From: an uncultured Bacilli bacterium
GTDB taxonomy: Bacteria; Bacillota_I; Bacilli_A; RF39; UBA660
Direction: 5' to 3'
Assembly (NCBI GenBank): GCA_934129945.1
Contig: CAKOXC010000001.1
Coordinates: 236,152-300,151 of the forward strand
DNA length: 64,000 nucleotides
In this document: piece after piece, positions 23,038 through 27,003 of the stretch
Position numbering within the stretch: the first letter of the stretch is position 1
Layout of the letters: the number at the start of each line of letters is the position of its first letter
Translations under genes and position numbers: made by a program
Notes under the pieces: model-generated
Told to the model about the DNA's origin: nothing
Databases searched by the model: none
Seen by the model: the letters and a program-made list of their open reading frames with translations, nothing else

Positions 23038-25518
23038 ATGGGCATATTTAGAAAATTAATAGACTCAGAGTATAAAGAATTAAAAAGGTTTGAAAAAATA
23101 GCAGAAGAAGTATTTGCTTTAGATGAAGAGATGCAAGCTTTAACAGATGATGAATTAAAAGCAAAAACTGCTGAATTTAAAGATATATTAGAAAAAAATG
23201 GTGGAGACTTAGAAGAAATAGTTGTTCCTGCTTTTGCTGTTGTAAGAGAAGCTGCTTATCGTGTAATAGGTGAAAAACCATACTTTGTACAAGTTGTTGG
23301 TGGTCTTGCTATTCATTATGGAAATATAGCTGAAATGAAAACTGGTGAAGGAAAGACTTTAACTGAAACAATGCCAACATATTTAAATGCTTTAACAGGA
23401 AAAGGTGTACATATTATCACTGTTAATGAATTCTTAGCTGACCGTGATTCAAAATGGATGGGAAATATTTTCAGATTCCTTGGATTAACAGTTGGACTTA
23501 ACTTAAGAGATATGAGTTCAAAAGCAAAACAAGAAGCATATAATTGTGATGTTTTATATTCAACTAACAGTGAAATAGGTTTTGACTATTTAAGAGATAA
23601 CATGGTAGTTACAAAAGAAGATCGTGTACAAAGACCTCTTAATTTCTGTATTGTTGATGAAGTTGACTCAATTTTAATAGATGAAGCGCGTACGCCATTA
23701 ATTATTTCAGGTGGCCAAGTTAAATCTGTTAATTTATATACAGATGCTAATAGTGCTGTAAAAAAATTGACAAATGAAGAAGATTATACTATTGATGAAA
23801 AAACTAAAAATGTTTCACTTACTGAAGAAGGAAGTAAAAAAATAGAAAAAATTATGCATATTGCTAATTTATATGATATTAATAATCAACCATTAGTTCA
23901 TAATATTAATAATGCATTAAAGGCAAACTATGGATTTCATAAAGATGTTGATTATGTTGTAGAAAATGGCGAAGTAATTATTGTTGATCAATTTACTGGA
24001 CGTTTAATGCCTGGTAGACAATATAGTGAAGGATTACACCAAGCATTGGAGGCAAAAGAGGGCGTTAAGATTAATGCTGAAACTAAAACAACAGCTACTA
24101 TTACATTCCAAAATTTGTTTAGAATGTATAATAAATTATCTGGTATGACAGGTACTGCTAAAACAGAAGAAGAAGAATTTAGAAATATTTATAATATGTA
24201 TGTTATTTGTATTCCTACAAATAAACCAATTGCAAGAATTGATTATCCAGATTTAGTTTATTCAAATGAAAATGGAAAATATAAAGCAATTGTTAAATTT
24301 ATTAAAGAAATTCATTCTAAGGGTCAACCTATCTTAGTTGGTACTATCTCTGTTGAGAATAATGAAAAACTATCTAAATTATTAGATAAAGCAGGATTAA
24401 AACATGAAGTATTAAATGCTAAAAACCATCAAAGAGAAGCTGAAATAATAGCTAAAGCTGGTCAAAAAGGTGCTATAACAATTGCAACTAATATGGCTGG
24501 TCGTGGAACAGATATCAAACTTGGTGATGGTGTCGTAGAACTTGGTGGTTTATGTGTAATTGGAACTGAAAGACATGAATCTCGTCGTATTGATAACCAA
24601 TTACGTGGTCGTTCTGGTCGTCAAGGTGATGTTGGTATGAGTCAATTCTTCGTATCATTTGAAGATGACTTAATGAGAAGATTTGGTACTGATAAAATTA
24701 AAAATATGATTGAATCTCTTGGTATTACAGATGATCAATGTATACGTTCTAAAGCCTTAACTAGAAGTATTGAAACTGCACAAAAGAAGGTTGAAGGAAA
24801 TAACTTCGATATGCGTAAAAATTTACTTGATTATGATAATGTTATGAATCAACAAAGAGATATTATTTATTCAAGAAGAAATGAAATTTTAGATGAAGAA
24901 AATATTCATGATAGAGTTTTAGAAACATTTAGAGATGCAGTAATTGGCCTTGTTAATGCTCATATTGAACCAGAAGGTTATATTACAGAAAATGATAAAG
25001 CTGAAATAGTTGAATATGTTAATACAAATTACTTAAAGAAAAATAATTTGAAAATTGAAGATGTTATTGAACTTGATGATAATGCTTTAGTAGAACATAT
25101 TTATGAATTATTAATTAAAGATTATAATGAAAAAATTAAAAATGCTCCTAAATTTGATGAATTTGAAAAAGCTATTTCATTAAGAATTATTGATAATTTA
25201 TGGGTAGATCATATAACTGCTATGGAACAATTAAAAGAAGCTATTATGTTAAGAGGATATGGACAAGTTAATCCATTACAAGCTTATACTATTGAAGGTT
25301 ATGAATTATTTGATGAATTAGAAAATAAAATTAATGGAAGTATTGCTCAATTCTTATTAAAAGCTAGTATTGAAGCAACTGGTGAAAGAAAACAAGTTAA
25401 TAAAGAAGGAAAAACTAATAGAGATAAAGGAATAACTATTCAATCTAAGAAAATTGGTAGAAATGAATTATGCCCATGTGGCTCAGGACGCAAGTATAAA
25501 CAATGTTGTGGTAAATAA
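23038..25518 (+). CDS. secA: preprotein translocase ATPase SecA
   Basis: DEAD-like motor motifs, 826 aa, C-terminal zinc SEC-C motif [15 protein letters not shown]. Confidence 0.97.
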   Translation: [826 protein letters not shown]

Positions 25519-25776
25519 ATTATATGTATAAAATACCAATTGATGTTATACGTGCTTCAAAAAATGAAAATGCTCTTGACGTACTAGGATTAAAATTAGA
25601 AGATAATAAAATTGTAAAAAAAGAAAAAAACAAAGTTAAGAGTATGAGTTTAAAATCTGAATATGCTGTATAAAATAGTATAAAATTTTAAGAATAAACA
25701 GTATTGTTATCCTAATAACAAATGTTTATACTTCAGAAACGAATATTATGTAACATATAAATAATAATTATTAAAA

Positions 25777-25941
25777 GCAGAAATTAAACGAAACCTAGAA
25801 AGAAAAGAAGTTACTAAAATAACAGGAACAAATGATAGTAAAGATAAAGTAAAATCAACAAGAAAAGTAGAAAAGATAGATGAAAATGAATTATGTTCTT
25901 GTGGCTCAGGTAAAAAATATGAGCAATGTTGTAGTAAATAG
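25777..25941 (+). pseudogene. start-less remnant of a divergent secA 3' end (SEC-C tail)
   Basis: Open frame LLKAEIKRNLERKEV...IDENELCSCGSGKKYEQCCSK* with no start codon; homologous to the SecA C-terminus but not identical to resident secA. Confidence 0.7.
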
Positions 25942-25953
25942 TTTGTTTTATAA
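25924..25953. repeat. 30-bp exact direct repeat copy 1 (caatgttgtagtaaatagtttgttttataa), spanning the SEC-C stop codon
   Basis: Identical sequence recurs at 26115-26144. Confidence 0.9.
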
Positions 25954-26114
25954 GGGTTTGTGAGTTTCTCAATAGTCAAAAAAAGGCAAAAAATTGTGCA
26001 CATAACGCCATTTGTGCACTTTTTGTGTTCATAAGCGAAAAATATATAATACTATGCTTCATAATATTATATATATTAAAAAAAGTAATCTTTGAGTTTG
26101 GTAAGAATCCTAAT

Positions 26115-26144
26115 CAATGTTGTAGTAAATAGTTTGTTTTATAA
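26115..26144. repeat. 30-bp exact direct repeat copy 2
   Basis: Identical to 25924-25953; encodes ...QCCSK* fragment. Confidence 0.9.
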
Positions 26145-26164
26145 AAAAATAGGATGGTGAAAAT

Positions 26165-26749
26165 ATGAAAATAGTTTTAGGCTCTACGAATGTTTCTAAA
26201 AAAAGGTCAATTTTAATTGCAATGAATGAATTAGGATTGGATGACATTTCTATTATCCCTGTTAATGTTAATTCTTTAGTAAGTTCTAAACCTATAAATG
26301 ATGAAACTTTAATAGGTGCAAAAAATAGAAATCATGGTTTATATAATTATTGTATGGAAAATGATATTTCATTTGATTTACTAATTAGTATTGAGGGTGG
26401 ATATGAACAGATAGATAATACATATTTTATTGTTACTTATGCATCAATATTAGACCAAAATGGTAAAGAATTTATAGGAAAATCAAGTGGCCTTCAAATT
26501 ACTGAAAGAATGTTTAACTATGTTAAAGATGGGAAGTCTTTGAATAAAGTTATTGAAAGTATTCTTGGTAATAGTAGTAATAAAAAAGATAATGGAATAA
26601 CTGGATACCTAACAACTGGGTATTATAGGAGAGATATATTTGAATCCTCAGCAGTTATAAGTGCAATGGAAACTTTACTAAATTTTAAATCAAATTACAA
26701 AAAATTAGATAAAAAAATAGATAAAACACATAACATTGGAAAAATTTGA
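26165..26749 (+). CDS. YjjX-family non-canonical purine NTP phosphatase (ITPase/XTPase)-like
   Basis: GSTN..K, GAKNR, ISIEGG, GITGYLTTG motifs parallel E. coli YjjX. Confidence 0.6.
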   Translation: MKIVLGSTNVSKKRSILIAMNELGLDDISIIPVNVNSLVSSKPINDETLIGAKNRNHGLYNYCMENDISFDLLISIEGGYEQIDNTYFIVTYASILDQNGKEFIGKSSGLQITERMFNYVKDGKSLNKVIESILGNSSNKKDNGITGYLTTGYYRRDIFESSAVISAMETLLNFKSNYKKLDKKIDKTHNIGKI

Positions 26750-26949
26750 AATAATTAGTAATATCATATATGATGTTATACATTTTTGAATATGTGATGG
26801 GAACAATGTGCACATTTTGTGATCACAGACTAAAAAATGTATAGTTCTATATATACTATATGTATGGCATAATACCAATACCGTTCAGACCCATTTTTCC
26901 TTGAAATATATATAGTACTATATATATTTCATAGTATCATATATACTGA

Positions 26950-27003
26950 AAAAGGACGAACATGTGGATCTGGACGTAAATATAAGCAATGCTGTGGAAA
27001 GTA
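26950..27003 (+). pseudogene. third SEC-C tail remnant (…[16 protein letters not shown])
   Basis: 18-codon fragment nearly identical to native secA terminus; no start. Confidence 0.65.

Follow-up and report, generated by a model that had tools for sequence, protein, structure and literature searches.

Start-less copies of the secA 3' end as probable scars of mobile-element integration in uncultured gut Bacilli

Why should the end of an essential gene be repeated, without its beginning, in the DNA that follows it? This question is raised by the secA gene in a stretch of contig CAKOXC010000001.1 from an uncultured Bacilli bacterium (64 kb, about 25% G+C; the window, by which we mean the whole stretch analysed), where the region under study runs on the + strand from secA at 23038 to about 32 kb. 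A first, sequence-only reading had noticed three start-less coding tails of the SEC-C type 3' of the intact gene and had proposed that elements integrate site-specifically into the gene end, each bringing its own version of the terminus. We consider it very probable that the extra secA ends are scars of mobile elements that integrated into the last 42 nt of secA, which would serve as the attachment site attB. The integration process is well known, and the instance in the window is a decayed array without an integrase that adds a new target gene and a new host clade to it. As the earlier reading had supposed, secA appears to be a previously unreported target: no report of it as an attachment site was found in full-text literature searches, which is absence of evidence and not proof of novelty.

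The secA terminus and its copies

The intact gene and the 42 nt at its end, which we call core 1, are placed as follows.

23038-25518, + strand: resident secA, intact, 826 aa, with a SEC-C zinc-binding tail (open reading frame, ORF; the same gene in the ENA scaffold L081 has the Pfam SecA domains and SEC-C)
25477-25518, + strand: core 1, the last 42 nt of resident secA and the putative attL-side junction (pattern match)

The 42-nt core spans the second Cys codon of the SEC-C CxC motif (TGTGG) through the stop codon. We scanned the window with a degenerate 42-nt pattern (codons CGSGxKYKxCCGK plus stop, at most three mismatches) and used 100 dinucleotide-preserving shuffles as the null. The pattern matched three times, each time on the + strand (core 1 at 25477-25518, core 2 at 25900-25941 and core 3 at 26963-27004), against a mean of 0.00 in the shuffles, and the three start-less SEC-C tails 3' of secA were indeed present. 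One of them had been placed a nucleotide too far 5' and runs from 26951 to 27004, not from 26950 to 27003. A repeat finder put the three long secA-end copies into one 68-nt family in which the displaced copies are 76% and 66% identical to the secA copy, so that the copies differ from one another and from the resident gene, as had been said. The finder also gave a 45-nt repeat (family D6, 87% identical) at 25909-25953 and 26100-26144, inside which lies the exact 30-nt repeat reported before, at the same coordinates (25924-25953 and 26115-26144).

For comparison we took the 80 best secA relatives from a genome collection (L001-L080). These are uncultured gut metagenome-assembled genomes (MAGs) labelled Bacilli, Tenericutes, Mycoplasmatota or Clostridium sp. 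CAG:302, CAG:710 and CAG:762, and cores were searched in them with a regular expression and then with an nhmmer profile of the 42-nt core. Every significant extra core in the 80 loci lay 3' of secA and on the + strand, and the upstream flanks, covered up to 10 kb, held none; fragments at unrelated positions, which the earlier reading had named as a sign of error, were thus not what these loci showed. Five extra cores were counted in L002 and two in each of L056, L062, L068 and L079. The homology between a displaced core and secA begins sharply at TGTGG (15 loci) and ends at the stop codon. Downstream sequence reached 3 kb or more in 41 loci; extra cores were present in 16 of these and an integrase homologue in 13, and 21 had at least one of the two.

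The terminus of the resident gene is itself unusual in its affinities. Core 1 matches the core of the distant L079 at 41 of 42 positions and that of L001, the closest relative, at 34 of 42, whereas the 90 nt just 5' of core 1 are 91% identical to L001 and 51% to L079. Since the core resembles L079 and the adjoining 90 nt resemble L001, the resident terminus allele looks as if it had been supplied by an element. The window terminus reads GSGRKYK (codon string GGACGCAAG), an allele otherwise present in L079 and in displaced cores of L002, L056 and L067, whereas the closest relatives, L001 and L002, carry GSGKKYK at the end of secA.

Integrases, a prophage and shared units at the secA site

Of the 60 loci with 300 bp or more of sequence 3' of secA, 20 have a tyrosine integrase (Pfam domains Phage_integrase, SAM_3 and Arm-DNA-bind_4) that adjoins the cores. 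In ten loci (L001, L007, L010, L012, L025, L026, L059, L061, L074 and L077) the integrase gene, with the N-terminus MVSVRKRGKVYEYRFE, begins 219-281 bp 3' of the secA stop codon on the same strand. L001, in which the integrase stands next to secA, has a SecA 93% identical to that of the window, and L010 is an example of an island with an integrase, ParA and ParB. The intact integrases of L007 (8191-9486) and L077 (12736-14007) both showed Phage_integrase, a SAM-like N-terminal domain and Arm-DNA-bind_4. A second type of integrase lies at the right end of the element in L050, L051, L062, L067 and L068.

We then widened the scan to IMG/VR with the core pattern, to metagenome contigs with a 29-mer from the right-end arm of a small NTPase-coding unit in the window, and to a phage collection of 50,697 records. 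IMG/VR record UViG_3300028833_003330 (40,114 bp) carries a secA-end core at 2627-2668 and a start-less core at 39862-39903, and PHROGs annotation between them gives an integrase, a CI-like repressor, Erf, a replisome organiser, a tail protein and an endolysin; the record contains a 37-kb prophage between two secA cores. The 29-mer was found in 37 metagenome contigs and was followed by a core 8 nt later in 36 of them. In 10 of the 37, an intact 418-aa integrase ends about 300 bp 5' of the 29-mer, in the place of the NTPase gene, and one 29-mer contig with a right-end integrase, L126, also encodes a MobA/VirD2 relaxase. The prophage, L126 and the L010 island together indicate that phages, relaxase-bearing elements and islands of 4-5 kb all occur at the secA site. 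In the collection of cultured phages there was no secA-core attP, only chance AT-rich or SEC-C matches, and the closest integrases, from C. difficile phages, were 34-36% identical. The recombinase that the sequence-only reading had suggested looking for in the flanks of the island is hence found in relatives, in ten metagenome contigs and in the prophage, and is missing from the 64 kb of the window.

Directly 5' of the displaced cores stand, in the main, either clusters of AATAATACTATAAATAC-like direct repeats (class 1, to which core 3 of the window belongs) or TTTAGATAC repeats followed by a gtgctcccaaaagctccc tract (class 2, found at prophage ends). Directly 3' of the stop codon, occupied sites carry (N)ATAAAATAAGGGTTTGCGAGG and then direct repeats specific to a subfamily, namely TTTGTCCAC, TGTTTGCAAA, TGTGCACA, TTTGTTTCC or TTAGATAC. 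This left-end motif is absent where prfB lies directly 3' of secA and no core or integrase was detected (L044, L034), and also at the right flank of the L050 element. Left ends of the TGTGCACA type stand before an intact integrase in L007 and before an integrase N-terminus cut by the contig end in L074.

Attachment sites of the lambda attP type carry arm-type sites that flank the core on both arms. Because the secA-site integrases have an arm-binding domain and the repeats are placed as in a lambda-type attP, we read the direct repeats as putative arm-type sites of the integrases. The left-end motif and both sets of arm repeats would then be carried by the element, attB and attP would share the 42 nt only, and the crossover would fall within these 42 nt. 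Several integrase lineages with arm-repeat motifs of their own seem to converge on one protein-coding core of 42 nt, a core that has to keep encoding a zinc-binding motif.

Comparison of pairs of loci showed that units spread horizontally. L050 and L051 have in common a 4.1-kb integrase-bearing element that starts inside the core and is 96.8% identical, and their upstream chromosomes (12.5 kb) are 85.7% identical; L051 has an additional 1.5-kb unit between secA and the common element. L056 and L061 are 89% identical through secA, lose homology at the stop codon and regain it past arrays that differ. Presence/absence polymorphism bounded at the repeats, which the earlier reading had proposed to look for, was therefore observed in both pairs and is incongruent with the relatedness of the hosts. 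In the window, 25942-27004 is about 97% identical to L056 12485-13551, with the match ending at the stop codon of core 3, and the SecA proteins of the two are 65% identical. Among metagenome contigs, an NTPase protein 95-97% identical stands behind SecA alleles whose identity to L056 SecA is 98-100, 81, 70 or 59%, the distance of its unit from secA varies, and many different left ends follow it. The accessory genes at the secA site comprise restriction-modification genes, transporters, the NTPase, RhuM and BclA-like surface proteins, and such genes move between genera there. RhuM and BclA genes recur in arrays of this kind elsewhere, which bears out the proposal that the window holds a serially re-targeted array.

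Two kinds of interrupted integrase were seen among these loci. The right-end type is split at the same GAATT-A8-C run in L051 (near 17425), L067 (near 14575) and L068 (near 13995), with proteins 72-88% identical in amino acids, and a -1 shift on A_AAA_AAA gives a full-length integrase in which ELKK is joined to NDIGHIYT; in L050 (near 15907) the run has seven A's and there is a second frame shift. The integrase might be controlled through this run, by programmed frameshifting or by slippage during transcription; alternatively, the split could be decay common to these elements. In L061 (12734-17103) the integrase gene next to secA is broken in two, with 83 N-terminal codons at 12734-12985, the C-terminal part at 16573-17221 and an ABC-transporter ATPase/permease pair (13104-16269) in the gap.

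The array in the window

The DNA 3' of the resident secA gene can be divided into the following pieces. CIME stands for cis-mobilizable element.

25519-25767, + strand: remnant left end of an integrated element, its 3' part a decayed 5' fragment of RhuM (about 25672-25775)
25768-25941, + strand: fragment 1, a start-less secA 3' end with core 2 at 25900-25941 (translation; nhmmer core match 1.6e-6)
25942-26132, + strand: gene-less unit of 191 bp, microCIME-like (repeat family D6; a unit about 97% identical lies 3' of secA in L056)
26133-27004, + strand: NTPase unit of 872 bp, a small CIME (Pfam NTPase_I-T; about 97% identical to L056)
27005-27700, + strand: left end of a further element, with motif CGTAAAATAAGGTGTGAAC and then a RhuM pseudogene (Pfam RhuM)
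27841-32041, + strand: cargo module of 4.2 kb (83.4% identical over 4219 nt to L132; Pfam)

In the first piece, the decayed RhuM fragment aligns to the 5' coding regions of RhuM in L053 and in the window itself (27086-27190), and the rest of 25519-25767 has no other match among the compared loci. An ORF of 49 codons lies directly 3' of secA (25524-25673, MYKIPIDVIRASKNENALDVLGLKLEDNKIVKKEKNKVKSMSLKSEYAV) and is annotated as a gene in the ENA assembly; it has no Pfam match and no homologue among the compared loci, and it is probably not a real gene.

The 191-bp unit carries the left-end motif TTTGTTTTATAAGGGTTTGTGAG and, at 25993-26020, direct repeats of TGTGCACA. It also has an arm-like stretch rich in A and T and, at 26100-26132, a partial core in which the start-less QCCSK and stop (26115-26132) are encoded. 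The NTPase unit holds a YjjX-like NTPase gene at 26165-26749 (Pfam NTPase_I-T at 2.6e-31). Its right-end arm has the TGTGCACA motif at 26805-26821, AT-rich repeats at 26840-26950 and the conserved 29-mer at 26928-26956, and the unit ends in core 3 with its start-less coding tail. Both units are bounded by cores or partial cores with arm motifs and contain no mobility genes. In streptococci, CIMEs are decayed elements that keep att sites and lack recombination, conjugation or mobilization genes; a classical CIME has cargo and measures 1.2-13 kb, and a microCIME has no gene and measures 130-220 bp (PMC7563491). The 191-bp unit is within the published microCIME range, and the NTPase unit has cargo and a size below the published 1.2-kb lower bound for CIMEs.

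Beyond core 3, the RhuM pseudogene (27071-27684, ATG-TAA with the ATG at 27071) matches Pfam RhuM at 1.4e-39 over 27175-27684. It has a stop at codon 2 and an internal deletion (at DDWKNEVENALKVFHYE), and it is 82-92% identical to RhuM genes in the arrays of L067, L062, L055 and L053. In L134 (oriented, about 4382-4460) the 29-mer of the NTPase unit is fused directly to the C-terminal part of RhuM (EVENALKVFHYD) and the core is gone, which points to a deletion across the core and RhuM that resembles the internal RhuM deletion of the window.

The 4.2-kb module codes for a BclA-like collagen-repeat protein, a 621-aa Ig-domain protein, a 119-aa protein and a 181-aa SpaA-like protein, and has a terminator. 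For the BclA-like gene (27948-29126) the Collagen match is at 6e-19, and the BclA_C match, at 37.6 bits, falls just short of the 38-bit cut-off; the cargo calls of the sequence-only reading (NTPase, RhuM pseudogene, BclA-like protein) thus all held. In L132 the homologous module sits after a core, a left arm and an N-terminal integrase fragment, and the 4.2-kb module probably belongs to the variable island. In many relatives secA or the array is followed by prfB, but the 38 kb that lie downstream in the window lack this gene, so the right boundary of the island is undefined there. Pfam found no phage structural, lysis or lysogeny genes in the window.

Mechanism, alternatives and known systems

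From these data we propose the following course of events. Several lineages of arm-binding tyrosine integrases would use the secA attB in a clade of uncultured gut Bacilli with low G+C. Their vehicles would be temperate phages, mobilizable or conjugative elements with a relaxase, and islands of 4-5 kb. The attP of such an element would consist of a right arm with direct repeats, 42 nt that imitate the end of secA, and a left arm starting with (N)ATAAAATAAGGGTTTGCGAGG and continuing with the direct repeats of its subfamily. Integration would restore an intact secA from the element's copy of the terminus and leave a start-less core at the far end. Newcomers would integrate beside residents, internal deletions would remove the integrase, and the outcome would be a tandem array of integrase-less remnants that retain att ends. 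In the window, the array would run from the element-derived secA terminus to a truncated RhuM-type left end fused to fragment 1, then to the 191-bp unit, the 872-bp NTPase unit, the RhuM-pseudogene segment and the BclA-module segment. Judged from their retained att ends, the remnants may be mobilisable by a related integrase acting on these ends, and the NTPase unit may derive by deletion from an integrative and conjugative element (ICE) or integrative and mobilizable element (IME) whose integrase recognises them.

Several observations weigh against this account. All compared genomes are metagenome assemblies, and many integrases in the compared loci are frameshifted or truncated. The 64 kb of the window hold no integrase (tblastn with two reconstructed integrases; Pfam on 20 ORFs) and no excisionase or relaxase, so nothing there is mobile by itself. 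In the window's own species neither an excised circle nor an exactly empty site was observed, although assemblies cannot tell circles from tandem arm-core-arm junctions; the only signal of polymorphism in that species is a contig break in a second assembly (L082). The cores inside one array diverge by 10-25%, and hence exact attL/attR identity is not seen and the crossover point is undefined. For the RhuM/BclA segment there is no right-end core, neither beyond 27004 in the window nor after the BclA module in L132. Lastly, fragment 1 keeps 131 nt of secA coding sequence 5' of its core, and a crossover in the core cannot displace sequence 5' of the core, so fragment 1 is not a simple displaced copy.

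Fragment 1 therefore needs an explanation of its own, and the earlier view that it was displaced like the others did not stand, while site-specific integration with an element-borne terminus agrees with the 80 loci, the integrases, the prophage and the transfer of units. Fragment 1 is open for 57 codons and ends in ENELCSCGSGKKYEQCCSK and a stop. In amino acids, its part before the core shows 55-57% identity with the SecA tails of L051, L056 and L078, against 38% with that of the window, and so resembles the tails of the CAG:302-like clade more than that of its own genome. On its 5' side it adjoins the RhuM remnant, with a joint at about 25768-25780 where a few bases are shared. Given the extra 131 nt and the RhuM remnant at such a joint, fragment 1 looks like it was joined to the remnant through a deletion, an additional illegitimate event. 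The foreign secA 3' part would formerly have lain 3' of a RhuM-type element, where it could have come by imprecise excision and gene capture in an earlier host, or by homologous recombination of a circularised donor segment at RhuM. L056 was considered as the donor and rejected, its secA part being only about 71% identical despite the value of about 97% for the NTPase unit; a donor lineage with a SecA ending in GTNDSKDKVKSTRKVEKIDENELC was not found among 136 loci.

Could the array have arisen in another way? That it is an artefact of collapsed or chimeric repeats is scarcely credible. The window and all relatives were assembled from metagenomes, and 28 of the 80 contigs break within 700 bp 3' of secA, so that the region is evidently hard to assemble. 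But scaffold L081, which may come from the same source as the window, is 100% identical over the whole array, and L082 (ENA, different ERZ accession, 141-kb contig) is identical until the contig ends 135 bp 3' of secA, at window position 25653; the structure of the array thus does not depend on one assembly, and the artefact that the sequence-only reading had considered was not borne out over the array covered. Different studies and different assemblers have also yielded this architecture, in dozens of MAGs and contigs, and because the copies are diverged, not identical, no collapse is expected. We regard it as highly improbable, too, that the tails arose by tandem duplication or slippage of the secA 3' end, or are relics of other SEC-C genes, with no site-specific recombination at all. 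SEC-C motifs do end many unrelated proteins (the IMG/VR matches L083, L085-L088, L091 and L093-L095 are full-length non-SecA ORFs), and fragment 1 resembles a truncated gene rather than a bare core. However, dozens of genomes have the sharp boundary at the same nucleotide, conserved arm repeats and integrases stand in the flanks, the DNA in between is foreign and 97% identical across genera, and copies are absent both 5' of secA and on the opposite strand. Upstream of core 3 and of the partial core there is no coding homology but there are arm repeats, and on this ground we rejected descent of the fragments from non-SecA SEC-C proteins.

A more elaborate possibility is an integron-like platform, in which single-gene units (a gene plus an arm-and-core end of about 250 bp) would be true cassettes, the right-end integrase would act in trans, and the array 3' of the essential secA gene would be a cassette store. 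Many units do hold one or two genes co-oriented with secA and scarcely any spare DNA, and the NTPase gene is preceded in its unit by just 12 nt and a ribosome-binding site. Arrays reach 5-6 cores (L120, L002), the NTPase unit (95-97% in amino acids) occurs at different ranks behind SecA alleles 59-98% identical, and its arm is the arm of an intact integrase-bearing element. Nevertheless we judge such a platform improbable. There is no fixed integrase or attI-like site by secA, whose upstream neighbours are hpf, csp and agr, and the repeated site is, by inspection, a direct copy of the gene end with repeats that look arm-type, unlike an attC hairpin. Gene orientation tells nothing here, since these genomes have nearly all their genes on one strand. 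Pseudogenes, truncated integrases and deletion joints indicate decay, and CIMEs and microCIMEs of the same size have already been described as decay products. A looser version, a shared gene-capture platform from which one-gene units would be excised, exchanged across genera and reinserted at varying ranks by integrases supplied in trans by co-resident phages and mobilizable elements, is conceivable, and we hold it to be doubtful; decay explains the same facts more simply than cassettes mobilised in trans. If it were true, such a platform would be a functional analogue of integron cassettes made from lambda-type arm-binding integrases and a protein-coding attB, and recombination might in addition be under frameshift control through the slippery A8 run conserved in one integrase family.

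Integration followed by decay, the account we prefer, has several known counterparts. Accretion of ICESt1 and ICESt3 was reportedly treated by Bellanger et al. in 2011, as cited in a later paper. Streptococcal ICEs and IMEs, together with CIMEs and microCIMEs, accrete in tandem at the 3' ends of rpsI, rpmG, fda, rplL and tRNA-Lys genes, as in the ICESt1/ICESt3 system (PMC7563491). The secA system is like it in that a tyrosine integrase acts at the 3' end of an essential housekeeping gene and leaves the product unchanged, direct repeats of the gene end flank the units, autonomous elements are mixed with integrase-less remnants, and a relaxase-bearing parent element is present (L126). It differs in its target, since secA with its SEC-C tail is not among the 12 targets in PMC7563491, in its hosts, which are uncultured gut Bacilli with low G+C, in the use of the same core by temperate phages, and in having at least five arm-repeat subfamilies on one core. 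Nor does the window follow the rule given in PMC7563491, by which decay is greatest in the elements most distant from the target, for its remnants directly abut secA.

Other comparisons concern the integrases and the form of the array. The combination of Arm-DNA-bind_4, SAM-like and catalytic domains in the secA-site integrases is that of lambda- and Tn916-type integrases, and the direct repeats on both sides of the secA core, as well as the CI-like repressor beside the integrase at the prophage end, are also of lambda type. Prophages of the lambda Int family can rebuild the 3' end of their target gene. As in island arrays at tRNA and tmRNA 3' ends, the attB is a conserved stretch at the 3' end of an essential gene, integration is serial, and old junctions are recognisable by displaced partial gene ends; unlike them, the target is protein-coding and the mimic must keep the zinc-binding peptide CGSGxKYKxCCGK, so the cores vary mainly at synonymous positions. 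The resemblance to integron arrays lies in the small units, whose one or two genes all point the same way and which close with a recombination site, and in the recurrence of a given unit in different genomes and at different ranks; unlike an integron, the secA array has no resident IntI or attI beside it, and its units coexist with full prophages and mobilizable elements at the same site.

The 3' end of secA is, in these terms, a highly conserved integration hotspot in a poorly known clade of gut Bacilli. Start-less cores reading CGSGKKYKxCCGK plus stop 3' of secA offer a simple marker for phages, mobilizable elements and cargo in these genomes, and the pairs of integrase and att site could serve as integration tools for organisms without genetics. 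The hotspot may also explain why assemblies so often break just 3' of secA. This side of the gene is a systematic assembly breakpoint, the window's own species (L082) included.

Some further features of the window lie apart from the array. The sole difference between the window and L081 is at window 32411-32465 and L081 19429-19528, where there are about 100 extra bp and a duplicated stretch of 55 bp, just 5' of a lipoprotein-like ORF of 191 aa (32441-33016) and overlapping its start; it is probably a difference in repeat copy number. Further downstream, tRNA-Trp (46795-46868) is followed by small ORFs, an N6/N4 DNA methylase (49160-49903) and thioester/SpaA-type pilin genes (51679-54177), and the region 46795-50000 may be another variable region. 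On the other side, an agr-like quorum-sensing locus (19010-21871) stands just 5' of csp-hpf-secA; it has AgrB at 21266-21871 (- strand), an AgrD-like ORF of 43 aa at 21115-21246 (- strand), an HATPase_c_5 histidine kinase at 19813-21099 and a LytTR response regulator.

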